64,000 bases of DNA from Vicinamibacteria bacterium (GCA_963555995.3 OY821641.1:704001-768000), one strand, 5' to 3'. Shown: positions 858 through 29,480, numbered from the stretch's first letter. Notes: generated by a model from the sequence alone, not told the origin. A program made the numbers and translations.

Positions 858-1119
858 AGCCCCGCCGCGGGGATTGGCTGGGGCTCCGGCGCGGGGGTTC
901 GGGGGGCCGATTTCGGGGCCGTGATCCGGCGGCGGGTGTGTATACAATGGGAGGTCCTGCGGGAGACGGGGGCGCCGGTCGCGCCCCGCGGACCTCCCCC
1001 GAGCTTGCCGCCGTTGCGGTAGAAGTCCGCGCGTGATGTGTGGTAGGCTGTCGAAAGTGTTATGTCCGACAGTTCAAGCATTCCTTGAACTTCCAACACC
1101 GCACCGGGAGGTAGGTGAC

Positions 1120-13859: not shown

Positions 13860-14166
13860 CGGCGCGGAGTTCAAGCGCCCGCCACGGTCATCAGGTGACT
13901 CCACTCTGTCGCTCGAATGTTACTTGAAATCCTCCGGGTCCGGGCAGAAGGAATCCGCCCGGGAGCACCCGGAGCGCCGGCCGCCGCCATCTCCGGGCCG
14001 CCTCCGGGACGACCGGGTGTCCGAGAGCGCCGCCGCCGCCACTTCGTGACATTTTGGTTCCATCGTGGATCGTGAACATGATAATCTGGCGATTCTCGGC
14101 CGTTCGTCCGGATCGCCCGGCTCGCACGGGGGCCGGTCACCCGCCCGGCCCGACGGAGGTGGACCC

Positions 14167-16023
14167 GTGAACGAACATCCCGACGCGCTGCGCCGGCGGA
14201 TCGGGACGCTCGAGGAACGCGTCGAAGCGCTGGTCGAGACCTCGCCGGTGGGCGTCGTGGTCTTCGACGGCGGAACCGGCAGGCTCGCGGCGGTCAACCG
14301 GGAGGCGCTGCGGATCACGGAGCGGCTGCGGACGCCGGACGCTCCCGTCGAGGCGTTGCCGGAGGGCCTGGTCTGCCGGCGGGCGGACGGCCGGGAGGTC
14401 GCGCTGGCGGAGGACTCGCTCGTCGAGCAACTGGACCGCGGCGAAACGGTGCGCGCCGAGGAGGTCACGCTCTCGGTTCCCGACGGCCGGAGCGTCACCA
14501 CGCTGATCAACGCCACCCCCGTCCGGGCGGCGGACGGCGCCCTCGAATCGTACGTGGTCACGATGCAGGACCTCGCGCCCCTCGAGGAAGCCGAGCGGCA
14601 GCGGACCGGGTTCCTGAGCCTGGTGAGCAATGAGATGCGAGCGCCGCTGATCGCCATCAAGGGCTCGACCGCCACCGTGCTCGGCGCCGCTCCGGCGCCG
14701 AGCCTCGCCGAGATGCTCCAGTTCTTCCGGATCATTGACGAGCAGGCCGATCGCCTGCGCGGCCTGATCGCGGACCTCCGCGACCAGGGGCGCATCGAGA
14801 CCGGCACGCTGTCGGTGTCGCCGGAACCGGTGGAGGTGGCCGTTCTGGTGGACCAGGCCCGGAACACCTTCCTGAGCGGCGGGGGCCGGCACCCCCTGCG
14901 CGTTGACCTGCCGGAGAACCTGCCGTGGGTGCTGGTGGATCGGGACCGCATCGCCCAGGTCCTGAACAACCTGCTCGCGAACGCGGCGCGGCACGCTCCC
15001 GAGTCGTCCACGATCCGGGTCGCGGCGGCGCCGAGCGGCGTGCACGTCGCGCTGTCGGTCACCGACGAGGGCCGGGGCGTGCCGCCCGACCGGCTGCCGC
15101 ACCTGTTCCGCAAGCAGGCCGGAGCCGGGGACCCCGGAATCGGCGGCGACGGCCTGGGCCTCGTGATCTGCAAGGGTCTGGTGGAAGCCCACGGAGGGCG
15201 CATCTGGGCGGAGAGCGACGGGCTGGGGCGCGGCGCCCGGTTCACCTTCACGGCGCCGGTGGCGGAAGGGTTCGGCCGCGCCGCCGCGGCGAGCCCGGGC
15301 GGGTCCGGCCCGGCTCCGGACGGGAACCGGCGGACGCGGGTCGTGGTGGTGGACGACGATCCCTATGTCCTCCGCTACGTTCGGGAGGCGCTCGGCGAGG
15401 CCGGCTACCTCGTGTTCGGGACGGATGACCCGGAAGAGCTGTGCGATCTCGTCCGGACCCACCGGCCCGGACTGGTGCTGCTCGACGTCCTGCTCCCCGG
15501 GACCGACGGCATCGAGCTCATGGAGTCGGTGCCCGAGCTGGCCGATGTCCCGGTCATCTTCATCTCCGCCTACGGCCGCGACGAGGCGATCGTCAGGGCG
15601 CTGGACGCGGGCGCCGCCGACTACATCGTCAAGCCCTTCTCGCCCTCGGAGCTGACCGCGCGGGTGCGGGCCTCGCTGCGCGCGCGGGCCGAGCCCGAGC
15701 CCTTCGTGCTCGGCGAGCTGTCCGTGGACTACGGCGCGCGCCGGGTCGAGGTCGCGGGGCGCCCGGTGGAGCTGACGGCGACCGAGTACCAGTTGCTGCG
15801 GGTGCTCTCGATGAATGCGGGACGGGTCCTGACGTTCGATTCGCTGCTCCGCCAGGCGTGGCGCGGACGGCAGAACGCCGGCGATCCGAAGCTGGTGCGC
15901 GCCGTCGTGAAACGGCTGCGCCGCAAGCTGGGCGACGACGCCGTGGACCCGGTCTATGTCCGCAACGAGCGCGGCGTCGGCTACCGCATGCCGGAACCCG
16001 ACCGCGGCTCCGCCAGGGGATAG
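14167..16023 (+). CDS. Hybrid PAS-HisKA-HATPase-receiver-OmpR winged-helix protein with H-box His replaced by Asn
   Basis: GGAGG RBS; SNEMRAPL H-box, NLLANA N-box, DEGRG, GLGL; LLDVLLPG receiver; ELTATEY...RLRRKL...GVGY wHTH. Confidence 0.85.
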   Translation: MNEHPDALRRRIGTLEERVEALVETSPVGVVVFDGGTGRLAAVNREALRITERLRTPDAPVEALPEGLVCRRADGREVALAEDSLVEQLDRGETVRAEEVTLSVPDGRSVTTLINATPVRAADGALESYVVTMQDLAPLEEAERQRTGFLSLVSNEMRAPLIAIKGSTATVLGAAPAPSLAEMLQFFRIIDEQADRLRGLIADLRDQGRIETGTLSVSPEPVEVAVLVDQARNTFLSGGGRHPLRVDLPENLPWVLVDRDRIAQVLNNLLANAARHAPESSTIRVAAAPSGVHVALSVTDEGRGVPPDRLPHLFRKQAGAGDPGIGGDGLGLVICKGLVEAHGGRIWAESDGLGRGARFTFTAPVAEGFGRAAAASPGGSGPAPDGNRRTRVVVVDDDPYVLRYVREALGEAGYLVFGTDDPEELCDLVRTHRPGLVLLDVLLPGTDGIELMESVPELADVPVIFISAYGRDEAIVRALDAGAADYIVKPFSPSELTARVRASLRARAEPEPFVLGELSVDYGARRVEVAGRPVELTATEYQLLRVLSMNAGRVLTFDSLLRQAWRGRQNAGDPKLVRAVVKRLRRKLGDDAVDPVYVRNERGVGYRMPEPDRGSARG

Positions 16024-16116
16024 ACGGCCATTACGGCGGGAGCGCCGGTCTTCGGGCCGGCGCTCCCGGCCGGCGTCGGAGCTTGAGCCGCGTTCGGTGA
16101 TTTTCTCCTTTTTGCT

Positions 16117-17991
16117 ATGTTCCTGGGTGCCGGTCTCGTGCTCTCGGGTTGTGGCGACGACGACACGGCCACCACGCCCGCACCGGCGCCGCCACCGCCA
16201 CCGGCTCCTGAGCCGGAGCCGGAACCCGAGCCTGAGCCTGAGCCGGAGCCCGAGCCGACTCCCCTCCATGCCCACTTCGAGATTCCGGAGGATGCCGATT
16301 CCCCGTACCCGATGATTCCGGACGACGGCACCGACGAGGAGACCGCCATGGCGTCCGTCAACCCGCAGATGGTGGTCGAGATGAACATGGCGGGCATCGT
16401 GACGCCGCTCTTCATCGAGGGCGCCGCCCCGATCGGCCTGGTCCCGGGTGACAACATGCCTTTCGCCTACGTCGACTGGAAAGCCATGCAGAGCGCCGTG
16501 GTCAGCGCCACTGGCGCGCAGTTCTCGGTCATCCCGGTAGAGATCGGCGCCAACCAGGTCCCCATTCCGATCGGCGCCGGAGTCATCGTGTCCTGCGGCC
16601 CGTTCGCGTGCTCGGAGAGTCCGATGGCGCCGGAGATCACGATCGGAGACTCCCCCGCCTGTCAGGCATGGCAACCGGATGTCAGACTCCAGGTTGGTCT
16701 CGTGGACAACGACAAGGCTGACGACGACACCGGAGCCGAGGGTACTCAGGTGCTGTACAACGGCGTGGATGTTGGCTGGATCATCAGTTCCAACGTCAAC
16801 ATGTCCGTGAAGCATCACTTCAGCGGTGTGGCGAACGGCCATAACCGGGTCCTGTCCGGCTTGGATGCTTCCAAGGGCACCGACAAGCCGTACGCCATGA
16901 CGAATGCGCATAACACTCCCGCACCGCGGGGTAGCGCACTCATCGACAACGCCGACTTCGACTTGCCTACGACGTTGCGAGTCGAGACGGAAGGTGACGG
17001 CCGGGGTTGCATCGCCACGGACACGTACAGCGAAGCCATCAGCGGCGTTCACGAGCCGGATGAGTGCTTCCGGGTCATTGCCAACGGCACCGCCAAGACC
17101 GGCGCGAACTACCTCTCCGGCTACAGCATCGAGCTCACTCCGAAGGGTGCAGAAGTCTCTTGGGGCAGCGTGGAACGGACTGAGGATCCCTTTGAGGATC
17201 TGACCTGCGACAGCAAGGAGGTCATGGCCATGGATGCCGCGGAAGCGGACGTCTGCGAACTGTTCGAGGACGAGGTTGACCGTGCTATCGCCAACGGATG
17301 GGGCGGTGCCAAGGGAACGTCAGTGACAGTCGTGCCCGCGCAGCAGAACGACTCCAACACGGGCCGTCTTGCCCAGCTTCAGATTGCTGCTCCCGCCGCT
17401 TCGAGCCATCAGTTCAGCGCGCTCTGGTTCAGCAACAACGATGGCGGCAAGAATCCTGCCGATACCGATATGTACGCGGACGCCGACACCGACACGACCG
17501 GCGTTCAGAGGGCACCTCTCTTGCTCAAACTTACGGACGGCGACGGCGATCCGAAGTACGGTGACTTCGGGAAGGTGGACCTGGTCAAGATCGGTGCCGA
17601 CGGGACGGATGACGGAACTGCCGATACGAACTACGACGCCAATGCCATCAAGCCGGACGGCAAGGCCGACAACTACCAGAGTCTCGACGGCACCACGGTG
17701 ACTTCCGACGATGCGGCAGCCTGTAGCGACGACGACGGTGCTGGCTGCGACGCGGAGTTCTCCGAGACGATTGACGTCACCTTCGATTCGGGAACTGCGC
17801 TCGGCTGCAGCGTGGCGCGGCAGGTCACCGTGACGTGTGAGTGGGATGCTCAGGGCCTCATCAAGAGCAACCCGATCGATCGCACCGCCCCCACCAGAGC
17901 CGAACCGCAGACGAGTTCGTTCAGCACCTTCAACGCGACCGAGACCGATTGGAGCAACATTGCACAGTTCGCCAAGTGCACGGTGAGCTAG
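16117..17991 (+). CDS. Cys-rich surface lipoprotein paralog A (short or damaged signal peptide)
   Basis: LSGC lipobox, (EP)n linker, ~175-aa region near-identical to 21807-23615; n-region lost by an apparent 1-nt deletion upstream of ATG. Confidence 0.85.
   Translation: MFLGAGLVLSGCGDDDTATTPAPAPPPPPAPEPEPEPEPEPEPEPEPTPLHAHFEIPEDADSPYPMIPDDGTDEETAMASVNPQMVVEMNMAGIVTPLFIEGAAPIGLVPGDNMPFAYVDWKAMQSAVVSATGAQFSVIPVEIGANQVPIPIGAGVIVSCGPFACSESPMAPEITIGDSPACQAWQPDVRLQVGLVDNDKADDDTGAEGTQVLYNGVDVGWIISSNVNMSVKHHFSGVANGHNRVLSGLDASKGTDKPYAMTNAHNTPAPRGSALIDNADFDLPTTLRVETEGDGRGCIATDTYSEAISGVHEPDECFRVIANGTAKTGANYLSGYSIELTPKGAEVSWGSVERTEDPFEDLTCDSKEVMAMDAAEADVCELFEDEVDRAIANGWGGAKGTSVTVVPAQQNDSNTGRLAQLQIAAPAASSHQFSALWFSNNDGGKNPADTDMYADADTDTTGVQRAPLLLKLTDGDGDPKYGDFGKVDLVKIGADGTDDGTADTNYDANAIKPDGKADNYQSLDGTTVTSDDAAACSDDDGAGCDAEFSETIDVTFDSGTALGCSVARQVTVTCEWDAQGLIKSNPIDRTAPTRAEPQTSSFSTFNATETDWSNIAQFAKCTVS
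16513..16638 (+). repeat. Perfect 126-bp inverted repeat, arm 1 (partner 23043-23168), within a ~510-bp imperfect inverted repeat
   Basis: Base-by-base manual comparison with the reverse complement of 23043-23168. Confidence 0.9.
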
Positions 17992-18036
17992 CCTGACGGA
18001 ATCCGTGACGGCGGTCTGACCCGCCCAGCGGATTCA

Positions 18037-18070
18037 GAGCCCCGGGGCCAGCCGGCCCCGGGGTTCTTTC
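18037..18070 (+). terminator. Intrinsic terminator of paralog A
   Basis: GAGCCCCGGGGCC-AGCC-GGCCCCGGGGTTC-TTTC; near-identical to the paralog B terminator. Confidence 0.8.
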
Positions 18071-18110
18071 GTGTACGCAGGTTGCGCCCCGGCCAGGATG
18101 GCGCGTACGG

Positions 18111-18274
18111 CTTGGAACGCCGGCTTCAGCCGGCACCCGCTACGCGAAGCGCAGCGCGCGGCACGACGCCGACCTGCCCGATGACGCTCGGTTCGCGGTC
18201 CGTCACCGCGAACAGCGGCACGTCGTCCGAGCGGGCCTTCGGCCCGCGGTGCCGGCTGAAGCCGGCGTTCCAAG
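18111..18274. mobile_element. REPIN core without outer flanks
   Basis: CTTGGAACGCCGGCTTCAGCCGGC ... GCCGGCTGAAGCCGGCGTTCCAAG around the family spacer. Confidence 0.75.
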
Positions 18275-18373
18275 CCGTTCCACCACTTTCCTGACCGGCC
18301 GGGGCGCGTCCCCCACGGGTCCCGGAGAGGGTTCCGTCAGCCGGTTATGCGTAGTCCCGGTCGAGGCGCTGGA

Positions 18374-19111
18374 TCAGGGCCGCAACTGTCGTGGGTCGCC
18401 TTCCACTTCTCGGCGAGCAACCGAACCACCCCGCCGTCCGGCCGCGCCCGCTGACGCGAGGGCCTCCTGTCCGTTGGACTCGATTGACTCAAGGAGCAGG
18501 TACATGCCCGACGATGGATTGTCGTCCGGAAACCCGGTTCCGTCTCCGGCGTGCTTGGCCGTCAAGACGCGCGCGCGTTCTGCCGCGGCGCCGCGACGGG
18601 GCATGTACACCGAACCGTCCAATCCCTTACCCGCGCTCTCGTCGAGGTCGCGGCGCAGCCTCTCGGCAGCGGCGGTGTCGAGCCACGCGGTCTGGTCTTC
18701 GAAATGGAGCGTCAGCCATAGCTCGAAGCAGGGATTCGAAATGGCAAGACGGACGCCGCTCGCTTCCGCCCTGGCTCGGGCCTCGGGAAGCTTGGGGTGG
18801 TTCTGGGGCCATTCGACGTCGAACAGGCACCACACCTCGTCTATCTCACCGTCCTCTCGCGAATTGCGAGCTCGGGCTTCGGCCGCGGCCTGTACCAGGG
18901 TCAGCGGCACGCCGGTCACATTCCGCTCAACGCGGATGTCTACTGAGGCGGCGTCGCGGACGGTCGGTTCCTGTTTCAGGGCCTCGAGGTAGTCGGGCTC
19001 GGTCCTTGTGCCTTCACAGAACACCAGGAATGTCCGCCGTGGCGTGCGATCCCCGACCCGGCGACGGAGCGAGGGGACTCTGCGCGCCCGGCGTCCGGAC
19101 CGCTTAGCCAT
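18374..19111 (-). CDS. RloB-family protein (AbiLii-like)
   Basis: VFCEG..TEPDY, VWCLFDVE, SNPCFELWL.LHF, NPSS motifs. Confidence 0.9.
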   Translation of the reverse strand: MAKRSGRRARRVPSLRRRVGDRTPRRTFLVFCEGTRTEPDYLEALKQEPTVRDAASVDIRVERNVTGVPLTLVQAAAEARARNSREDGEIDEVWCLFDVEWPQNHPKLPEARARAEASGVRLAISNPCFELWLTLHFEDQTAWLDTAAAERLRRDLDESAGKGLDGSVYMPRRGAAAERARVLTAKHAGDGTGFPDDNPSSGMYLLLESIESNGQEALASAGAAGRRGGSVARREVEGDPRQLRP

Positions 19112-20381
19112 CAACAGGCTGAGCGACGAGCCCGAGGGCTCGGCGCACTGCGACCTGTTCCACTTCCGGAACCGCCCCGAACCGTCCTTGCAGATAAGCA
19201 CGCTCCAGGTTCAGCGACTTCCTCACGCGTTCACCCCCGAACTCGGCGAGGGCAACGAGGCGCGTGGTCGCGTTGGGCGCTTTCTCGGTGAGCCACACTT
19301 CGTCGCGGTTCAAGCCGTTCAGCAGGGACGTGTCGTGGGAAGTGAAGACGAGTTGAGCCCCGCGGGGATTGGTCTCGGGATCCTGGAAGATCTCGATCAA
19401 TCGCGCCGAAAGGCGGGGATGAAGGCTGGCGTCAATCTCGTCGAGCAGCAGGACAGAGCCGGATCGGAGCACCGCGAGCGCCGGAGCGATCAGATCGAAC
19501 CAGGTCCGGGTCCCGGCGGACTCATCCCGCAGATCGAAGGTGACCGGTTCCCCTTCTCCCTGATGAACGAAACCGATGCGGCGACGAGGTCCGAAGCGCC
19601 CCGACTCCTCTTCGATCATCACAAAATCGTCAATTCCCGGATCCGCGAAACGAAGCAGGTCCATGGCAACGTCAGTGTTCGTGACCTCCGGTTCGTTTTC
19701 CGGGGTGGCAAGGAGTGGTCGCGGATTGGAGCTTCCCTCGAACAGCAGGTGCCTCGTGGAGTCGAACGGGCCGAAGCGGCCGAGCCGGGGAAACTGTCTG
19801 TTCTGGAGCCCGAGGACGCGCATCCGCGCGAGTGTTCGTCCGACGCGTCCTATTTCGGTATCCGATACCCGCCGGCCAGCGGAAAGCGCCAGCGTCGTGG
19901 GGGTCAGCAAGTCCCGTATTCCCCGGGTTCCGTCGAGGCCCCGGCGGAACTTGATTTCGCTCTCCCGGCGCGTGAAGAGGTTTCGCCGCCATCCTTCCGG
20001 ATAGCTGTCCAGGCTCTCGAACAGGACCGCCGAGTCGTTTACCTCGAGCCGATACGTGTATCGGACCCCACGGGCCATCAGGTCCAGATCGAACTCCGTG
20101 GGAGAGACGGGTCCCCTGCCGAACCGATGAGCGTCGCGCGGGATGTAGTCCTCCCAGCTTCGAAGCGACGCGGAAACGGCCAGCGACAGCCACGCCATGG
20201 CCTCAAGGACGTTGGTCTTGCCCGACGCATTGGCCCCGTAGATTCCGGCGACCGTCAGCACGCGCTCCGACAGCCCCTCGAAGCCTCGCGTCGCCGCCCG
20301 ATCCCGGTCCACGGCGATCATGGACAGTTCCACCGGCTCCAGGATCGAGCGGTGGTTCGACACCCGGAATCGAAGCAGCAT
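19104..20381 (-). CDS. AAA_21 ATPase (RloA/AbiLi-like)
   Basis: IYGANASGKTN, ESAGT, LLDEIDASLHP, QLVFTSH, YLQGRFGAVP; overlaps the rloB-like start. Confidence 0.9.
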   Translation of the reverse strand: MLLRFRVSNHRSILEPVELSMIAVDRDRAATRGFEGLSERVLTVAGIYGANASGKTNVLEAMAWLSLAVSASLRSWEDYIPRDAHRFGRGPVSPTEFDLDLMARGVRYTYRLEVNDSAVLFESLDSYPEGWRRNLFTRRESEIKFRRGLDGTRGIRDLLTPTTLALSAGRRVSDTEIGRVGRTLARMRVLGLQNRQFPRLGRFGPFDSTRHLLFEGSSNPRPLLATPENEPEVTNTDVAMDLLRFADPGIDDFVMIEEESGRFGPRRRIGFVHQGEGEPVTFDLRDESAGTRTWFDLIAPALAVLRSGSVLLLDEIDASLHPRLSARLIEIFQDPETNPRGAQLVFTSHDTSLLNGLNRDEVWLTEKAPNATTRLVALAEFGGERVRKSLNLERAYLQGRFGAVPEVEQVAVRRALGLVAQPVDG

Positions 20382-20851
20382 GAACCCAGTTTAGCGCCGA
20401 ATCGGCATTTTCAATGCCTTTATCGAACAGATCCTGCAAATTCCGCCACAAGATCGCAACAATACTGCCGTCACATGCTTGTCTGAAGACCGGCGCTCCC
20501 AGTAGCAGACGGCCGGGCACCCTCGCCAGAGGGTGGTTCGTCCACCAGGTCCGCGTCGTCCCGGAGCGCGCGGACCTCGCGTACCACCGCCAGCGCCCCG
20601 GTCGAGACCTGTTTTCGTACGATCGTCGCCCACGCACCGAACGGCCGGTCGGCATGGTCACGCCGTGCCCCCGGGCGGGTTTCACCCGCTCCCCCCACGG
20701 CGCATTCCCGCGACTTGCTCGTGTTCCGAGCCGACCGGCCCTGGCCGAACGCACGGCTCAGGACCGGCGCGATCGTCGGCCATGCCACCGGGCGCTACGG
20801 CGACGCGCACGGACGACGGCGCCGGGTCTCGGGGACGGCGCGCGCGGCCGA

Positions 20852-21322
20852 TCAGTCGGCGAGCAGGGCCTCGACGTCCGCGTGGTTCTTGCCGAGGAAG
20901 GGGTTGATGAACCGGACGCCGAGAAGTACCTGGCCATCCTGAAAGTCCTCGGTGAGGATCGCTGAACAGCCGGCCCTCCGAGCCGTGGCCCAGAGCATCG
21001 CGTCCCAGAAGGAAATCCGGAAACGCTCCAGGACCCGCATCGCGTCCACGAGGTCGCCCACCGCGTTCGGAGTGACCCGGAACACCTCGAGCCAATCGCC
21101 GACGAAAGCACTCGCCTCCTCCGGCCGCAACAGACGCTTGCGCGTGGTTGCGAAAAAGAACTCGGTAAGCGACTGCAGGGCCAGCACACAGTCCGACGTG
21201 GCCGCCCGCGCCACCAGCGCGAGCGAGGTTTCATGCCGGTTCGCGTCCGCGTCCCGATCCGCGGCATAGACGAGGATGTTGGAATCGAGCGAAAAGCGGC
21301 CCTCGACACTCGCGGGGCTCAT
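20852..21322 (-). CDS. PIN-domain (VapC-like) toxin
   Basis: LDSNILVYA, SLTEF, SFWDAML, LTEDFQ, INPF. Confidence 0.9.
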   Translation of the reverse strand: MSPASVEGRFSLDSNILVYAADRDADANRHETSLALVARAATSDCVLALQSLTEFFFATTRKRLLRPEEASAFVGDWLEVFRVTPNAVGDLVDAMRVLERFRISFWDAMLWATARRAGCSAILTEDFQDGQVLLGVRFINPFLGKNHADVEALLAD

Positions 21323-21609
21323 TCCGCCGCCGAAAACTCGTCGTGCCGGTCGTGGAGTGCGTCGCGATCCTCGATTCTCAGGCCCCCCAGCGGCGCCCCC
21401 TCGCGGAGCCGCGCCTTCATCCGCTCATAGGCCGCGATCCACTGCGGGTCCCGTGTCCGGGCCTCGTCGTTGGGCAGGATCCGGGCGACCGGACGACCGC
21501 GGCGGGTGATCACGAACCCCTCGCCGTTCTCCACCTCCCGAATGAGCCGGGAGAACTGCTGGTTCGCTTCCTTGAGGGAGATAGGGCGGAGCGCCACGGG
21601 AACAGCCAT
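21319..21609 (-). CDS. Phd/YefM-family antitoxin
   Basis: ISLKEANQQFSRLIREVENGE.FVITRRGRPVA; ATGA overlap with the toxin. Confidence 0.9.
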   Translation of the reverse strand: MAVPVALRPISLKEANQQFSRLIREVENGEGFVITRRGRPVARILPNDEARTRDPQWIAAYERMKARLREGAPLGGLRIEDRDALHDRHDEFSAAE

Positions 21610-21733
21610 AGTCACTACTTTACTACTTCAGCGGTCGTGCAGTGATCCGGATCCCGCGCCGCGCCGTGGCGGTGCGTGTTTCGCTCCCCTGCGGGGAGCG
21701 ATGCCGGCCGGAGGCCGGCGCTCCGAGCCGTAC

Positions 21734-21770
21734 AAAGGAAGAACCCCGGGGCCGGTTGGCCCCGGGGTTC
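21734..21770 (-). terminator. Intrinsic terminator of paralog B
   Basis: Minus strand GAACCCCGGGGCC-AACC-GGCCCCGGGGTTC-TTCCTTT. Confidence 0.8.
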
Positions 21771-21806
21771 CTGTTCCGCGAAGGAGCGTCTAAGGAGAGG
21801 GACTCC

Positions 21807-23615
21807 TCAACTTACCTTGCAGGAGAGGTAGTCGCCCACGTTGTCGGTGTCGAAGGTCGGCGAAGTGGTCCTGTCATCCGCTTTCTTGCCCGCGCCCACG
21901 GCGGCGCCGCCGTCGGCGTCCCACTGGCAGGTCAGCGTGTAGTCCACCGTCTCGGAGCAGCCCATGCCGATGCCGTCCACGAAGGTGACCGAAGTCTCGA
22001 TCATCACGTCCTCGGCGTCACAGAGCGTGCTGTCGCTGTTGTTCGCACCGGCAGAGTCCTTGGTCCGCCCCGTGCCACCGTCGTCGGCGGTGCACTTGAT
22101 GTCAGCCCAGGCGGTTTGCGAGTTGTTGATCCCATTGTCGCCATCCGTGTCCGTGAGACCGAGATCGCCGTACAGCGGGTCGCCATCGTCGTCGAGGTAA
22201 GGGACCCAGTACATCGCGACGTTGTTATCCGTGTCGGTTGCCTTGGAAACCTGACTCACGGCAATTCCTCCGGTTGCGGCCGCGGTCGTGGTCCTTGCCG
22301 TGTAGAGGTCCACGGTGTTGGCGTGGGTCGCATCCTTGGAGGAGGTCGCCTTGGTCGCCTGCATGTACCAGAGGTGGGTGAAGTTCCGCGGGCCGACTTC
22401 GTTCGCCTTGAAGTTGAGGTTCCATCCGGCGATCACGTTGCTGGTTACCGTCGCCACTGCGGTCACCTTGCCCAGGTTCGCCACGTCGGCGGCGAACATG
22501 GCGCAGACATCCACCGCGGAGGTGTCGTAGGTCGTCGAGGAACAGTCCAGACCGTCGAACGCGTCCCAGTCGATCTCGCCCCACATCACCGAGGTGCCCT
22601 TGGGCGTCACCGTCAGGGTGTAGTTGCTGAGGTAGTCGTTGTTCTTGTCGTGCTTGACGCGGAAGCACTGAGCGCCACCGGGCTCCTGGACGGTGCCGGT
22701 CACGTCCGTATAGGTGTCGCAGGCATCGGCGACATCGTTGGTGTCGTCGGCGGTGTCGTCGTACTCCGATCCCAGGATTCCGTCGCCCACGTCCTGAACC
22801 CGCAGATCCGTCGCCGAGGAAGCCTTCTTGCCCTTGGTGTCCTTCCACATCGTGGTGGCGATGTCGTGGGTCGCGTTGAAGTCCTGGCTCGAGGTGTAGC
22901 TCCAGCCGAGGTCAATCCCACTCATCTCGTCCCGCTGAACGCCGCTCTCGTCGTCGAGATTAATGCTGTTGTTGTGCACCCGACCGACCTCGAGGTCGAA
23001 CATCGGGTCCCAGCCCTGGCACGCCGCCGAGTCGGCAATCGAGATCTCCGGCGCCATCGGACTCTCCGAGCACGCGAACGGGCCGCAGGACACGATGACT
23101 CCGGCGCCGATCGGAATGGGGACCTGGTTGGCGCCGATCTCTACCGGGATGACCGAGAACTGCGCGCCCGTGGCGCTGACCACGGCGCTCTGCATGGCCT
23201 TCCAGTCAACGTAGGCGAAAGGCATGTTGTCGCCCGGGACCAGGCCGATCGGGGCGGCACCATCGACGAAGAGCGGCGTCACGATGCCCGCCATGTTCAT
23301 CTCGACCACCATCTGCGGGTTGACGGACGCCATGGCGGTGTCCTCGTCGGTGCCGTCGTCCGGGATCATCGGAAACGGGGAGTCGGCATCCTCTGGAATC
23401 TCGAAATGAGCGTGGAGAGGGGTCGGCTCCGGCTCCGGCTCAGGCTCGGGTTCCGGCTCCGGCTCGGGCTCCGGCTCCGGAGCTGGCGGCGGTGGCGGCG
23501 GCGCCGGTGCGGGCGTGGTCGCCGTGTCGTCGTCGCCGCATCCCGAGAGCACGAGACCAGCGCCCAGGGTCACGGTAAGAAGGAGAAAATTTCCGCGCTC
23601 GAAATGACGTAGCAT
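21807..23615 (-). CDS. Cys-rich surface lipoprotein paralog B (complete signal peptide)
   Basis: MLRHFERGNFLLLTVTLGAGLVLSGC signal/lipobox, (EP)n linker, shared constant domain, divergent C-terminal region ending CKVS. Confidence 0.88.
   Translation of the reverse strand: MLRHFERGNFLLLTVTLGAGLVLSGCGDDDTATTPAPAPPPPPPAPEPEPEPEPEPEPEPEPEPTPLHAHFEIPEDADSPFPMIPDDGTDEDTAMASVNPQMVVEMNMAGIVTPLFVDGAAPIGLVPGDNMPFAYVDWKAMQSAVVSATGAQFSVIPVEIGANQVPIPIGAGVIVSCGPFACSESPMAPEISIADSAACQGWDPMFDLEVGRVHNNSINLDDESGVQRDEMSGIDLGWSYTSSQDFNATHDIATTMWKDTKGKKASSATDLRVQDVGDGILGSEYDDTADDTNDVADACDTYTDVTGTVQEPGGAQCFRVKHDKNNDYLSNYTLTVTPKGTSVMWGEIDWDAFDGLDCSSTTYDTSAVDVCAMFAADVANLGKVTAVATVTSNVIAGWNLNFKANEVGPRNFTHLWYMQATKATSSKDATHANTVDLYTARTTTAAATGGIAVSQVSKATDTDNNVAMYWVPYLDDDGDPLYGDLGLTDTDGDNGINNSQTAWADIKCTADDGGTGRTKDSAGANNSDSTLCDAEDVMIETSVTFVDGIGMGCSETVDYTLTCQWDADGGAAVGAGKKADDRTTSPTFDTDNVGDYLSCKVS
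23043..23168 (-). repeat. Perfect 126-bp inverted repeat, arm 2 (partner 16513-16638)
   Basis: Manual comparison. Confidence 0.9.
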
Positions 23616-23883
23616 GACAGGCCGGAGGGACGGAGTTTTCCGTCCGTAAGTTGTATGTTTGTCATTGATTTATCTCCTGGTCCCAAGAAGAGATCGCGTT
23701 CATTTCCTGTACTGTCGCCCAAGCTTGTTTTCGTGCGACAAATGATGTTTCTGTGCGGCGGTTTGACCGCGGCTCGGAGATATTGCCGTGAGATCGCGGC
23801 GAAGGCGGGTCTGGTTCCGGCGGTGTTGACTCTGTTGACCCGGACGCCGGCCGCCGCCGTCACCCACCCCGGTTCCCCGGAAC
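23616..23883. promoter_or_regulatory. AT-rich divergent intergenic region between lipoprotein B and the integrase
   Basis: Marked AT enrichment at ~23635-23750 in a very GC-rich background; exact promoters not assigned. Confidence 0.5.
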
Positions 23884-25185
23884 ATGCCCGCCGCCCGGCG
23901 TAAGCGCATCGCCCGGGTCAAGGTGACCCTGACCCGGCGGACGATTGACGGCCTGATGCCGCAGGCGCGGCCCTGGATCGCGTGGGATACCGAGGTCACC
24001 GGGTTCGGCGTCAAGGTCCAGCCCACCGGGACCCGGTCCTTCATCCTCAACTACCGCGCCCGGGGCGGGGGCCGCACCGCCCGCAACCGGCGGGTCGTCC
24101 TCGGCGGGGCCGAATGGATGGAGCCCGACCAGGCGCGGCGCCGGGCGCGGGAGCTGCTGGACCGGGTCGCGCGGGGCGAGGACCCGGCCGAGACGCGGGC
24201 GGCGGCGCCCCGGTTCCCGACGCTCACCGAGGCCTTCGCGGAGTACCTGGCGGCCAACCCGGACCGCAAGGAGAGCACCGCGCGGTTCTACCGCGGCCTG
24301 ATGCGCAACTGCTTCGCCGACTGGACGGAGCGGCCGCTCGGCGCCATCGCGCGCCGGGACGTCGAGGCGCGCTTCCTCCAGGTCTCGAAGCGGCGCGGCC
24401 GGACCGTCGCCAACCAGGCGATCTCGATGCTGCGCTCGGTGTACCGCCGACCCTGCGTGGACTTCGACGGCCTGCGCAACCCCGTCGAGCTGTGGCTGGC
24501 GGGGGGCGGGCGCTACCACCCGACCGTGCGGCGGCGCATCTCCGCGCCGTCCGAGGTGCTGCCGCGGTGGCGCCGGGGGATCGAAGCCGAGGTCATCGTG
24601 CCGGCGACGCGCGACATCTTCTGGTGCGGGCTCTACACCGGGCTGCGGCTCGGCGAGGTGTTCGGCCTGCGCTGGAACCGGGTGAGCCTGTCGCGGCGCC
24701 TGCTGCGGATTGACGAGACCAAGACCGGGAAGCCGCTGGTCCTGCCGGTCACCCGGCAGCTCGCCGACGTCTTCGAGCGGCGCCGGGCCGACGGCCCGGG
24801 GGAGGCCGCCGGGGACCCCGGCGGCGCCCGGCCGAACGGCTGGGTCTTTCCCTCGACGACCAGCGCCTCCGGCCACGCGGAGGAGCTGCAGCACCTGTAC
24901 CGGCGGATCTCCCGCGCGGCGGGGACCCGGTTCTGGTTCCACGGGCTCCGCAACGCCTTCATCACGGTGGCCGAGCGGGAACTCATGCTCCCGCGCTCGC
25001 TCACCAAGCGGCTGGTGAACCACACCCGCCACGCCGACGTGACCGAGGACTACGCCGCGGACTGGACCATCCGGCAGCTTCGCGAACCGGCGCAGCGCAT
25101 CGCGGACCGGATTGACGAGCTGATGTACGCCGAGGCCCCGGAGGACGCGGAGGAGATCCCCGAGGGGTGGTGGGAGGATCCGTGA
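23884..25185 (+). CDS. Tyrosine recombinase/integrase with N-terminal arm-binding (DUF4102-like) domain
   Basis: WD.EV.GFGVKV..TG.RSFI N-domain; catalytic TGLRLGE (R), TKTG (K), HGLR (HxxR), VNH, DYA (Y) all present. Confidence 0.92.
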   Translation: MPAARRKRIARVKVTLTRRTIDGLMPQARPWIAWDTEVTGFGVKVQPTGTRSFILNYRARGGGRTARNRRVVLGGAEWMEPDQARRRARELLDRVARGEDPAETRAAAPRFPTLTEAFAEYLAANPDRKESTARFYRGLMRNCFADWTERPLGAIARRDVEARFLQVSKRRGRTVANQAISMLRSVYRRPCVDFDGLRNPVELWLAGGGRYHPTVRRRISAPSEVLPRWRRGIEAEVIVPATRDIFWCGLYTGLRLGEVFGLRWNRVSLSRRLLRIDETKTGKPLVLPVTRQLADVFERRRADGPGEAAGDPGGARPNGWVFPSTTSASGHAEELQHLYRRISRAAGTRFWFHGLRNAFITVAERELMLPRSLTKRLVNHTRHADVTEDYAADWTIRQLREPAQRIADRIDELMYAEAPEDAEEIPEGWWEDP

Positions 25186-25345
25186 CGGAGGGGTGGCGGG
25201 TAGTGCGCCATGCAGCCCAGTAGCCCTCCAGCGTCGCGAGGGTCTCGATCCGGCTCTGGATGCTCGTCGCCAACCGGACGCTCACGCTCCGGAATCCCCC
25301 TTCCCGTGCCACAACTCCCCGATACCTCATGGGCCGTAGGCGCTC

Positions 25346-25374
25346 TTGACCGACACGGGAGCTTTGACTATATT
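25346..25374 (+). promoter_or_regulatory. Sigma70-type promoter of the NYN gene
   Basis: TTGACC-N17-TATATT. Confidence 0.7.
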
Positions 25375-25475
25375 GCTGACACCGTCCCAGAAAAAACTGA
25401 ACGGGACGGGAAAACTCCGGGGCCCCCGAAAGGGGGCCCCAAAACAATTCAACAAACCAACTGGAGGTATGTGTT

Positions 25476-26324
25476 ATGGATCGAGTGGCTGTTTTCGTGG
25501 ATGCGGGGTATTTCTTTGCACAGGGCTCCGTAGCCAAATTCGGACGCGCCGTGCCGCGCGCAGAGCTTCGACTCAGAGCGCCGGAGACGATTGAGGCCTT
25601 GAAGCAGTTCTCAGAACAATGTTCTGGGCTTCCGCTGCTTCGAATCTATTGGTACGACGGGGCTCGACGCGGGCAGCCGACTACCGAACAGGCCGCTCTC
25701 GGGATTCAGGACAACGTAAAGCTGCGTCTGGGAGTCGTGGGATTCGACGGTAGGCAGAAGGGCGTCGATTCCTTGATCGTGACGGACATGATTACCCTCG
25801 CACGCAACGGAGCCATGATGCACTGTGTGCTTCTGTCCGGCGATGAGGATCTCCGTGTGGGTGTACAGCAGGCTCAGGAATTTGGTGTCCGGGTAGATCT
25901 GCTTGGCATCGCTGACCGACAGACTGCGTCCGCCGCTCAGTCGGACCTGCTGCGCCGGGAGGCCGATTCGACGAACGCCTGGAGTGCACAGGACATCGAC
26001 GCACTTCTCGAACGCCCGGAGAGCCCCACTGACGACGGGGACCAGGATGGCGACGCCCTCGTGTCCATCGCGCAGCGTGTAGCGCAAGAGGTCCCTGGTA
26101 CAGAGGTCGAGAGGATCGTCCACCAGTACGCTGGAAGCCAGGCAAGTGGGCGGTCCGGATATCTCGATTCGCAATGGAACGCGGAACTCCTTCGCACGGC
26201 CGCCAGAGCACTGCAGCGGGCGCTAGACGATCCCGAGGAAACCAACAGGATCAGAGCGGCCTTTGTTGACGCACTGCGGAACCGCCTTACGGCCACTGCC
26301 AGCGCTGGAGACGATGCTTCCTGA
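25476..26324 (+). CDS. NYN (LabA/DUF88 PIN-like) ribonuclease domain protein
   Basis: VFVDAGY, RIYWYDG, QKGVDSLI..D, LLSGDEDL; GGAGG RBS; lower GC than flanks. Confidence 0.9.
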   Translation: MDRVAVFVDAGYFFAQGSVAKFGRAVPRAELRLRAPETIEALKQFSEQCSGLPLLRIYWYDGARRGQPTTEQAALGIQDNVKLRLGVVGFDGRQKGVDSLIVTDMITLARNGAMMHCVLLSGDEDLRVGVQQAQEFGVRVDLLGIADRQTASAAQSDLLRREADSTNAWSAQDIDALLERPESPTDDGDQDGDALVSIAQRVAQEVPGTEVERIVHQYAGSQASGRSGYLDSQWNAELLRTAARALQRALDDPEETNRIRAAFVDALRNRLTATASAGDDAS

Positions 26325-26659
26325 ACACAGCGCTCCGACTGACGGGAGCCGACCGACGAACCGGATACCTCGCAGCGAAGACCTGCCGTGCCGCATGGGC
26401 TGCGCCTGCTCGATGAGCCTTCTGATTCGGGCGAACTGGCTGCTTCCCTCCGGTGCGCCTGGGGGCGGCTCGGAGCTGGCCTTCGACTAGGCGACGCTTG
26501 CGGGGGTCAAGATCTCCGCCAGGCGGAAATCTTTACCCGCTTCCGGGATGAGGTGGGGAAGCGCACGGCCTCGACGAGACGGTCGTTCTCGAAATTGCCG
26601 AGTATGCGTCATCTTGCGTTCAGCAAGGCGCCGGGTTGGATGCGATAGGGTGCGTCGCG

Positions 26660-29020
26660 ATGCGTTTCTGGCTGTTGCTTTCCTGTCTCGCTGTCCTGAC
26701 CGCGCTCGCCGGGTGCAGCGCCCGGTCGGGCGCGTCCACCGCCGCGCGGTCCGCGGCGGCGCCCCCGGCGCCGCCCCCGGAGCCGCTGCCCCCGCCCGAG
26801 CCGCCACAACCCCCGCGGCCCCTGCCGGAAGCCCCGGAAGACACCTGCGTGACCATCCATACCGGGGAGTGCGTGCCCACGCCGCAGTTCAACGCGATGG
26901 CGACGGAGCTGTCCGCGGAATACGCGGCGGACCGGAACTTCGAGGCGCAGTGGGGCCTCCACGCCATCAACGCCCACCTCGCCTACGGCCACGTGAACCT
27001 GCTGGAGGGGCCCGACGCTCAGCCGGGCGCCGGAGTGACCATCGGCGTCATAGACACCGGCATTGACGACGAGCACCCGATCTTCGCGGGCAAGACGATC
27101 CACAAGGAGTTCCTGTTCGGCGCCGAAGAGGAGCTCGGGGACGAGTTCTCCCACGGCACTGCGGTGGCGGGCATCGCCGCCGGGGTGCAGACCGTCAATC
27201 CCAACGCCCCGCACGGCGTGGCCTGGGGCGCCGACATCGCGCTGTGGGCGATCCCGCTCGGGGACCCCGACAACATCTACGACCCGATCAGCCTCGCAGA
27301 GCTCGCCGAGGACGATGCGGGGTGGGTGCAGATATTCCAGCCCGTGTTCGACTGGCGCGATGGGGGGAACCGGATCGACATCCTGAACCTGAGTTTCGGC
27401 TACGAGGGGCTCATCACCGAGTACGCCGCCGAGGGCCTCCGGGAGAGCCTTCCGGAGACCATCGCGGTCCTGGCCCAGGCGGATGCCGCCGAGAAGACGA
27501 TCCTCGTCTGGGCGGCGGGGAACATGAACGGCGACCGCTGCGGCTTCGGCGTCCCGAACTGCGTGGACGGCCGCATCGAAGCTGTCTCGATCGGCGTCCT
27601 GCCGGGGCTCCTCACCTACATGGAGGAACTTCAGGGGCATTCCATCGCGGTCGTCGCCCTCCAATCGGACGGCGGGGCGATCGCGGACTTCTCGAACCGG
27701 TGCGGCACCGCCGCCGAGTGGTGCATCGCGGCGCCGGGAGATGACGTGATCTTTGCCTACTTCGGGCCCGACCAGGGCGAGGACGGTGTCCGGGGCTACG
27801 CCGAAGGCGGAGGGACCTCGTTCGCCGCGCCCATGGTGTCCGGCGGGCTCGCGATCATGAAGCAGCTCTTCCGCGACCAGGTCTCGAACGAGGAGCTGGT
27901 GAGCCGGCTCTTCCGCACCGCCGACAACACCGGCATCTACGCCGACCGCGACCTCTACGGCCGCGGGCGGATGGACCTCGGGGCCGCCACCTCGCCGGTG
28001 GGGGTGCTGGACGTGCCCATCACCACCGGGACGGCCGCCCTGGCGTCCGCCGCGCTCGGTTCCACCGGGCTGCGCCTCGGGGCGGCGTTTGGGGACGGGG
28101 TGGCGGCGGCGTTCGACGGCGACGAGATCATGGCGCTCGACGGCTACGGGTCGCCGTTCTGGTACGAGCTGGAGAGCTTCACCGCGACCACCGACGGGCC
28201 GTCCATGGCGGCGCGGCTGTGGACGTTCATGGGTTCGGGGTCGGGACTGGCGGCGGTCGGCGGCGGTGGCCCGGGGCTCACGGCCTTCGGGGTCTCGGGA
28301 CCGGTGCTGCGGATGCCCAGCGCGGCGGGGAACGGGCACCTCGCGCTCGCCGAGGGGGCGGTGGCGGCGGTGGCCGGCGAGGGGCGCGGCTTCTCGGCGA
28401 TGGCGTTCACCACCGGGCCGCTCCGTCCCGCCATGCCGGCGGCCGGGGCGGCGGTGGGATGGCGGCCGGGCGAGTTCCCGGTGGGCTTCCGCGCCGGGTG
28501 GATCTCGGAGCGCGAGACGATGCTCGGGAGCCTGGGGCAGGGGGCCTTCGGGAGTCTGTCGGCGGGCACGGCGTTCGTCGGCTTCGACGGGAGCGTGGGC
28601 CTCGGCGGCTGGCGGTTCGGGGCGGGCGGCGAGTTCGGGATGGCGAACCCGGTGGCGCACGGCGGGATGATCCGGGAGATCTCGGCGCTCCGGACCAGCA
28701 CCTTCGCGGTCCACGCGACGCGGGGGTTCGAGCGCGCCGGGTCGCTGAGCTTCTCGCTGTCGCAGCCGCTCCGGGTGGAGAACGGCTGGGCGGCGCTGGC
28801 GGTGCCGGCGGCGCGAACGAAGGCGCGCGAGGTGCTCCACCGCCCGCTCCGGGCCGACCTCGCGCCCGGCGAACGGCAGCTCGACCTCGCGGCGCAGTGG
28901 AACCGGGCGCTCCCCCTCGGCGAACTGCGCCTCGGCGCGATCTGGAGCCACTGGCCCGGCCACCGGGACGCGCTCGGCCCGCAGGTCGCCCTCCTCTCCG
29001 GCTGGCGCTGGACCTTCTAG
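26660..29020 (+). CDS. S8 subtilase lipoprotein with predicted C-terminal beta-barrel-like region, paralog 1
   Basis: LAGC lipobox; IDTG, HGTAVA, AAGN, GTSFAAP; ends WRWTF. Confidence 0.9.
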   Translation: MRFWLLLSCLAVLTALAGCSARSGASTAARSAAAPPAPPPEPLPPPEPPQPPRPLPEAPEDTCVTIHTGECVPTPQFNAMATELSAEYAADRNFEAQWGLHAINAHLAYGHVNLLEGPDAQPGAGVTIGVIDTGIDDEHPIFAGKTIHKEFLFGAEEELGDEFSHGTAVAGIAAGVQTVNPNAPHGVAWGADIALWAIPLGDPDNIYDPISLAELAEDDAGWVQIFQPVFDWRDGGNRIDILNLSFGYEGLITEYAAEGLRESLPETIAVLAQADAAEKTILVWAAGNMNGDRCGFGVPNCVDGRIEAVSIGVLPGLLTYMEELQGHSIAVVALQSDGGAIADFSNRCGTAAEWCIAAPGDDVIFAYFGPDQGEDGVRGYAEGGGTSFAAPMVSGGLAIMKQLFRDQVSNEELVSRLFRTADNTGIYADRDLYGRGRMDLGAATSPVGVLDVPITTGTAALASAALGSTGLRLGAAFGDGVAAAFDGDEIMALDGYGSPFWYELESFTATTDGPSMAARLWTFMGSGSGLAAVGGGGPGLTAFGVSGPVLRMPSAAGNGHLALAEGAVAAVAGEGRGFSAMAFTTGPLRPAMPAAGAAVGWRPGEFPVGFRAGWISERETMLGSLGQGAFGSLSAGTAFVGFDGSVGLGGWRFGAGGEFGMANPVAHGGMIREISALRTSTFAVHATRGFERAGSLSFSLSQPLRVENGWAALAVPAARTKAREVLHRPLRADLAPGERQLDLAAQWNRALPLGELRLGAIWSHWPGHRDALGPQVALLSGWRWTF

Positions 29021-29461: not shown

Positions 29462-29480
29462 ACCCTTTACAGTGACACGC

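Follow-up and report, generated by a model that had tools for sequence, protein, structure and literature searches.

A candidate cassette-shuffling locus for surface lipoproteins, linked to a tyrosine integrase, in a Vicinamibacteria genome

A stretch of 64,000 nucleotides from a Vicinamibacteria bacterium (GCA_963555995.3, OY821641.1:704001-768000; the window, to which coordinates refer unless a contig is named) contains two convergent lipoprotein genes, here called cassettes A and B, with inverted, closely similar 5' regions and with a tyrosine integrase gene beside B. The original prediction, made from the window alone, read this arrangement as a two-gene switch, in which a flip of ~6.4 kb swaps variable C-termini onto the expressed N-terminus. 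We have followed it up in the genome to which the window belongs (G000, 3.8 Mb in two contigs, the window being C1:704001-768000) and in related genomes. The two-gene switch has to be given up, because A and B belong to a family of four cassettes, A to D. The reading to which we incline, if only somewhat, is that of a recombinational cassette-shuffling locus, of whose four variable surface-lipoprotein cassettes A and B are two, and in which exchange between inverted cassettes re-assorts the variable bodies among fixed contexts of the genome, probably with the help of the recombinase. A and B are most plausibly one exchangeable pair within a larger locus C-A-B, to which D has to be added. The features concerned are the following.

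16117-17991, plus strand: cassette A, with EP linker, constant N-domain ending in PMAPEI and divergent Cys-rich C-terminal half
21807-23615, minus strand: cassette B, a lipoprotein of 602 amino acids whose variable half has 67% protein identity to cassette C's
C1:674515-676359, plus strand: cassette C, 45 kb upstream of A
C1:2281597-2283411, minus strand: cassette D, 1.56 Mb away
16103-16160, plus strand: leader block of cassette A, encoding the signal-peptide h-region and lipobox; the homology of the paralogues starts at ~16095-16103
23530-23587, minus strand: leader block of cassette B, a second allele (ACCGTGACC...GGCGCT)
16164-16714, no strand: left arm of the inverted repeat, 551 nt, holding perfect tracts of 72 bp and 126 bp
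22967-23517, no strand: right arm of the inverted repeat, with the perfect tracts at 23043-23168 and 23268-23339
18020-18075, plus strand: terminator-like hairpin 3' of the stop codon of cassette A
21739-21779, minus strand: terminator-like hairpin of cassette B, homologous to that of A
23616-23883, no strand: intergenic region between integrase and lipoprotein gene (context I), with motifs conserved in 9 genomes
23884-25185, plus strand: tyrosine integrase, 433 amino acids, with the domains Arm-DNA-bind_3 (3e-13) and Phage_integrase (3.4e-13)
16034-16072, plus strand: GC-rich hairpin after the histidine-kinase/response-regulator gene 14065-16023

Cassettes C and D are further paralogues in the genome, outside the window, and the lipoprotein family was found in all 24 searched genomes of the bacterial family. 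Across the initial ~500 nt the identity is 85-100% among cassettes A, B and C and 58-100% for D; in the variable halves, compared as protein, A is distant from all others. The similarity is mosaic, the first ~100 nt of A (from the block into the linker) being identical to D, not to B.

The homology of all cassette copies starts ~20 nt before the CTG of LGAGLVLSGCG, and from there a leader block of ~45-60 nt is near-invariant at the nucleotide level. It occurs four times in the 3.8 Mb of G000, exclusively in the four cassettes, and 53 times across the genus, in 16/16 genomes. Its codons (CTC CTT CTT ... CTG GGT GCC GGT CTC GTG CTC) are 93-100% fixed in 40 sequences; they are four- or six-fold degenerate and include CTT and GGT, which are unusual where the G+C content at third codon positions (GC3) of core genes is ~0.95. 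Invariant Gly, Ala and Val residues further downstream use the majority codon in just 40-70% of the sequences, and 11 other open reading frames (ORFs) of G000 with matching N-termini (signal peptide, PA/EP linker) have ordinary GC-rich codons instead. An inverted-repeat core was not recognised in the block. At the other end of the genes lies a GC-rich terminator-like hairpin, of which the genome has four copies, each ~30-45 nt past the stop codon of A, B, C or D. Each cassette spans from the leader block, conserved also at its synonymous sites, to a conserved terminator hairpin.

What the original prediction said of the proteins was recovered in the comparison of A (624 amino acids) with B: the two convergent lipoprotein ORFs share a 5' region, which forms the inverted repeat, homology collapses right after PMAPEI, and the C-terminal halves keep seven of the seven motifs listed earlier, with 13 Cys in each protein. 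The lipobox Cys of the cassette A protein is preceded by just 11 residues. Searches with the lipoprotein gave low-complexity EP as the sole match in Pfam, no match in NCBIfam, nothing usable in Atlas and, in a profile search of the PDB, myosin light chain alone, on the PA/EP linker; in a protein search for a strain of the same species the best match was 54% identical. Other large lipoproteins of different families (window 1033-3369; G000:C1:696796) have the same layout of signal peptide, Cys and PA/EP-rich linker, apparently a general way of tethering proteins at the surface of this bacterium.

The inverted repeat 16164-16714 / 22967-23517 extends over 551 nt at 88% identity, with a further arm at 16095-16203 / 23487-23595. 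It contains 126 bp of perfect identity (16513-16638 / 23043-23168), with a mismatch at either side, and 72 bp of perfect identity (16342-16413 / 23268-23339), both just where they had been placed before. A perfect run of 126 bp within 625 nt at 89% identity has a probability by chance of ~3e-5 (an approximate value). Synonymous divergence (dS) of the N-domain is 0.18 for A-B, 0.14 for A-C and 0.18 for B-C; for the variable halves of A and B it is above 1. The constant part has therefore been homogenised by recombination rather than merely constrained, and, as read from these sequences, the tracts show a recent exchange between the constant domains of A and B. Inverted 5' regions that are long and very similar and that bear traces of homologous exchange also characterise inversions of the Campylobacter fetus sap type. 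An inversion is geometrically possible because the repeats are inverted and because both ORFs would remain in frame.

The integrase beside B, divergent from it, is intact, as had been claimed: besides both domains it has the catalytic motifs TGLRLGE, HGLR, VNH and EDY. It gave no sequence match in the PDB, only a weak match to XerA. In a coordinate comparison an integrase homologue was found divergently oriented, ~170-320 bp from the block, at 18 of the 53 blocks and in 12 of the 16 genus genomes. The others are G004, in which no integrase was found, G009, in which a decayed integrase lies downstream of the gene, G010, in which the block is at a contig start, and G015, in which block and integrase are on different contigs. 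Orthologues of full or near-full length (78-83% identity, one per genome) stand divergently beside a block in nine cases out of nine, and the same pairing was found in three genomes of other genera (G018, G019, G020); the linkage among homologous loci on which the original prediction depended is thus borne out. Seven orthologues from seven species were checked and are intact, with ratios of non-synonymous to synonymous divergence (dN/dS) of 0.22-0.56. A recombinase conserved at the locus is likewise a mark of the Mycoplasma switches of the vsa/vpma type. By coordinates, every match to the integrase clade in G000, G001, G008, G009, G013 and G014 has a family gene no more than a few kb away; the sole other integrase homologue of G000 is N-terminally truncated and adjoins D. 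In the integrase-less relatives G017, G022 and G024 the blocks are degenerate at synonymous sites and the family genes, of which G024 has up to 41 matches, are mostly in tandem.

Context I, between integrase and cassette B, has motifs found in the 9 genomes: GTCAAC-N-RTCAACA near the integrase start, an AT-rich AAGTCAATGAAAAAYAAGTCACTTACAG, and GTCATGCTACGTCA. In G000 it carries a 49-nt insertion (window 23700-23760) between the motifs TTTGTCGCAC and ATAAATCAATGA.

The sequences upstream of the block fall into few classes, which recur across species. One of these, conserved over ~330 nt, is present once per integrase-bearing genome examined, in G000 before cassette C, and it follows tRNA-Pro(CGG) in 10 of the 10 loci scanned. 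It has the motif TTGCCC-N17-TATACT, a leader of ~170 nt, AGGAGG 8 nt before the ATG, and a proper signal-peptide n-region; a motif CACGAGAC ~133 nt upstream of the block is exclusive to this class. The corresponding region of G000, C1:673960-674580 (L002:889-1510), with tRNA-Pro(CGG), promoter-like motif and leader before C, is conserved in at least 13 sequences. The leader of cassette C has two CCTAC-NGGAG-GTAGG hairpins and a predicted 14-bp pairing with the coding leader block. RNAalifold, applied to 13 leaders, predicts that CACGAGACGGCGC of the leader pairs with GGYGCCGGTCTCGTG of the block, and the Shine-Dalgarno (SD) sequence with CCTG of the block, with slight covariation. The leader of C matched no family in Rfam, and RNAduplex predictions for upstream regions and the block did not tell the contexts apart.

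At A and B no SD sequence is recognisable. An in-frame TGA at 16084-16086, 33 nt upstream of cassette A, leaves A without a start codon before the ATG at 16117; the frame beginning MLRH... upstream of B has no SD sequence and is broken in three of nine orthologous contexts. A scan of 15800-25400 for promoter and terminator consensus sequences gave nothing useful. Since promoter-like motif, leader and AGGAGG are confined to cassette C, the expressed N-terminus probably lies outside the interval first reported, not within A or B as had been supposed, and the context of cassette C, the sole fully equipped one, is likely the expression site of the locus.

Shuffling is suggested by comparison of the species. 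A quick maximum-likelihood tree built from 38 variable regions puts the eight bodies found at the tRNA-Pro context in eight separate positions; the bodies at the integrase context require six label changes for nine rows of the tree, and near-identical bodies occupy different contexts in different species. Orthologous contexts are thereby shown, at the level of sequence comparison, to carry unrelated bodies in different species. In one such body pair, from G008 and G001, homology sets in at position -20 of the block's CTG and reaches beyond the gene by 4.4 kb or more, the pattern expected of one breakpoint located at the block. Perfect tracts between convergent partners measure 1223 bp in G014, 266 bp in G019, 126 bp in G000 and 92 bp in G013. 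Read by coordinates, neighbouring family pairs are convergent in 11, tandem in 10 and divergent in 2 cases. The DNA between cassettes is variable among related genomes, and flanking genes vary in orientation or side, as seen for p12681 and the histidine-kinase/response-regulator gene in G003 and G007 versus G000, and for VapBC in G012, where a pair 80-82% identical to that of G000 lies on the other side of the integrase. An attempt on paper to derive the gene order of G000 from that of G003 and G007 by one block-to-block inversion failed.

As to mechanism, a crossover between A and B would flip ~6.4-7.4 kb. A crossover between C and B would flip 53 kb and would bring a new body to the promoter motif, leader and SD sequence of the C context. 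The leader block may be the site of the recombinase, and non-reciprocal gene conversion from silent cassettes may act in addition; the candidate modes of exchange are thus site-specific recombination at the block, homologous recombination across the long repeats, and non-reciprocal conversion.

Several observations weigh against cassette shuffling, or against the integrase as its agent. Four public sequencing runs, from three samples of one study, were available as Logan contigs. In these, both variable halves and the integrase flank recur with 0 differences, and the contigs end at the edges of the repeat (16609, 23027, 23522). The repeat is therefore real and not an assembly collapse, a possibility raised at the outset and now excluded, and the orientation of A to B is for the same reason unreadable from the contigs. 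They show the reference junction of context I with B alone, the integrase-side context joining solely the B-type block and ~280 nt of B-type sequence; over 23250-23900 there are no alternative junctions, loose ends or strand-switch joints, and a rearranged form of A and B was not seen in contigs, which drop rare forms and in which a crossover within the 126-bp tract would go undetected because it makes no new 31-mers. The ~6.4-kb flip swapping C-termini has geometry, exchange footprint and integrase linkage on its side and lacks an inverted form among the contigs. A metagenome scan with a 22-mer of the leader, for a strain of the same species, found just four contigs, 74-89% identical to known loci. 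The constant region is most alike in A and B at its far end, and this favours homologous exchange over a site-specific event at the block; the blocks of A and B themselves differ at ~10 of 63 positions (hand count on the alignment). From the cassette C context to the integrase-side cassette it is 150 kb in G020 and 1.87 Mb in G018. G004 retains a tRNA-linked gene without the integrase, and in five genomes the paired cassettes are mutual closest relatives, as duplication or conversion gives. Conservation of the block could instead reflect its predicted RNA pairing with the leader of cassette C. Finally, the integrase is of the P4 type with an arm-binding domain; P4-like arm-domain integrases usually serve integration and excision, and, to our knowledge, the invertases of the switches named in the original prediction are without such a domain.

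In the contigs over 15000-26000 there are, besides, joints driven by repetitive extragenic palindrome (REP)-like elements, with sides of 20-37 nt; a joint of opposite strands at 18425/21666, seen in two runs, is distrusted, both its ends lying in or near repeat elements.

A more specific version of cassette shuffling, which we regard as possible though on the whole doubtful, is that a clade of domesticated P4-type arm-domain integrases, vertically kept in several genera of sponge-associated Acidobacteriota, exchanges whole cassettes at the ~45-nt block, which would also pair with the mRNA leader of the tRNA-Pro site.

The strongest rival is an ordinary multigene family under concerted evolution: paralogues expressed independently of one another, with 5' ends held similar by occasional gene conversion and by selection for export and translation, the integrase being a relic without a role, and no programmed switch. 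We consider it rather unlikely. The single junction form in four runs, the sister cassette pairs in the five genomes, the gene kept in G004 and the large families retained by integrase-less relatives would all follow from it. Every cassette is an intact ORF whose ATG or GTG stands two codons ahead of the CTG of the block, as independent expression would have it, and the predicted pairing of leader and block offers a cause of block conservation that is not recombinational. It leaves unexplained, however, why an intact integrase clade stays at the block under such dN/dS values in 12 genomes of the genus and in three other genera, why block invariance and convergent pairing track the presence of the integrase, why most cassettes are without SD sequence and leader while exactly one copy per integrase-bearing genome is equipped with them, and how bodies came to be re-assorted among orthologous contexts.

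The second rival takes the locus to consist of mobile modules, i.e. small integrative elements of integrase and cassette with the leader block as attachment site, which accreted beside tRNA-Pro and form no reversible switch. An arm-binding domain in the integrase is what one expects of a tRNA-targeting island, the locus starts at tRNA-Pro(CGG) in all ten loci scanned, D stands alone with the truncated integrase 1.56 Mb away, and defence and toxin-antitoxin genes lie between the cassettes like cargo. G014 has the tandem order integrase-cassette-integrase-cassette. A second integrase subfamily (~67% identity), which often flanks a cassette on both sides, inverted (L054 G011:C77:1-20000; L058 G012:C79; L048 G006:C45), is also often found on a cassette's own strand, ~0.7-2.5 kb downstream of it, and in G011 its order with the cassette appears permuted between two inverted copies; these arrangements hint at small integrase-plus-cassette modules. 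However, mobility fits badly with an 80%-identical integrase that is single-copy in nine species and keeps its syntenic neighbours: in G000 and G008 the S8 peptidase stands on its far side, and in G003 and G007 p12681 and the histidine-kinase/response-regulator gene stand on its cassette side. The GC3 of this integrase (0.97) also differs little from the values of genes nearby, for instance the S8 peptidases (0.94-0.96). A direct repeat of the tRNA 3' end was not found within 70 kb: in C1:670000-745000 no repeat above 15 nt of the 3' end or flank of tRNA-Pro turned up besides one of 23 nt, 3 kb ahead of the tRNA and probably due to a neighbouring tRNA-Pro gene. Nor was a tRNA found near D, and the 64-kb window contains no tRNA gene. 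As A and B are inverted, not direct, simple integration would not produce them, and we regard mobile modules as improbable.

The remaining features between A and B, and the neighbours beyond the integrase, are these.

18100-18285, no strand: REP-like double-hairpin element, not part of the switch, with 244 near-full copies in the genome
18374-19201, minus strand: AbiLii/RloB (AbiLii 4.7e-27), part of an AbiL-like two-gene abortive-infection module, 18374-20381
19104-20381, minus strand: AbiLi/AAA_21 ATPase (AbiLi 7e-87), of the same AbiL-like module
20852-21322, minus strand: PIN toxin of a VapBC-type pair, 20852-21615
21319-21615, minus strand: Phd/YefM antitoxin of the VapBC-type pair

The AbiL-like module has a GC3 of 0.76-0.77, below that of its surroundings, and was probably acquired. 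A 31-nt perfect inverted repeat (18107-18137 / 18248-18278) belongs to the REP-like element, at which the read depth is 20-300 times that of the neighbourhood, the spikes being due to REP-like elements; a further hairpin element of this type lies at 21640-21730. Downstream of the integrase follow an NYN-domain gene (25476-26324), which was not found at the matching place in G008 and G004, and two tandem S8 subtilase paralogues (26636-29020 and 29472-31775) with 78% DNA identity over 2.2 kb. The NYN-domain gene separates the integrase from the first of these, whose synteny with the integrase recurs in G008; in G004 its syntenic neighbour is the lone lipoprotein gene.

Documented examples of programmed surface variation come chiefly from pathogens and gut commensals. 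If the locus switches, sponge-associated Acidobacteriota, too, run a conserved recombinase-linked cassette system, acting on a large family of Cys-rich lipoproteins; a P4-type integrase would have taken on a housekeeping function of the chromosome, and there would be a testable handle on the response of uncultured symbionts to host recognition or phage pressure. If in addition the integrase is domesticated, programmed surface variation would come from a type of integrase that is not known for driving switches of this kind, and variation of the symbiont surface could govern recognition by host or phage. The integrase-bearing genomes, with invariant block, one leader and convergent pairs, and the integrase-less ones, with degenerate blocks and mostly tandem genes, form a natural experiment.

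In the sap system of Campylobacter fetus, RecA-dependent inversion occurs between conserved 5' regions of ~600 bp, and the homologues face outward around a promoter-bearing invertible segment. Our locus resembles it in that the long conserved 5' regions (551 nt) of oppositely oriented homologues bound a segment of ~6 kb, and in the footprint of homologous exchange inside the conserved region. It differs in that the homologues are convergent, with defence and toxin-antitoxin genes between them, in the linked recombinase, and in that the products are lipoproteins, not S-layer proteins.

The systems of Borrelia vlsE and Neisseria pilE/pilS work by gene conversion from silent cassettes, with one expression site and promoterless cassettes. 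The conserved flanks of our cassettes (leader block, terminator hairpin) could anchor such non-reciprocal copying, which would work at any distance, e.g. over the 1.87 Mb in G018. Unlike in these systems, the cassettes described here are intact genes of full length, to which a conserved recombinase is linked.

Close as well are the surface-lipoprotein switching loci of Mycoplasma, M. pulmonis vsa/HvsR, M. agalactiae vpma/Xer1 and M. bovis vsp (PMC2268961, PMC5634654). Common to them and to our locus are lipoprotein genes that vary in their bodies but are highly conserved at the 5' end (signal peptide, lipobox), the presence of a tyrosine recombinase gene, copies in inverted orientation, and apparently one fully equipped expression context, which the other copies are without. 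What differs here is the recombinase, a 433-aa P4-type arm-domain integrase, of which two subfamilies are present; the organism, a sponge-associated acidobacterium, and its ~600-aa Cys-rich proteins of an unnamed family; the expression context, tied to tRNA-Pro and to a structured leader of ~170 nt; and the inversion, which is putative here.

Gene-altering programmed inversions and shufflons were systematically surveyed by Milman et al. (2023; PMC9881135), who found site-specific integrases enriched beside such loci. As in such inversions, and as in Bacteroides shufflons of SusC/SusD-type lipoproteins, a constant N-terminus is combined here with alternative C-terminal parts, and the inverted repeat lies within the coding sequence. 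Unlike those loci, ours has two complete ORFs and not a full gene with C-terminal fragments, and its inversion is a prediction. The string 'Acidobacter' does not occur in the text of the survey. The locus likely represents a known strategy of variation in a new host group and a new protein family.

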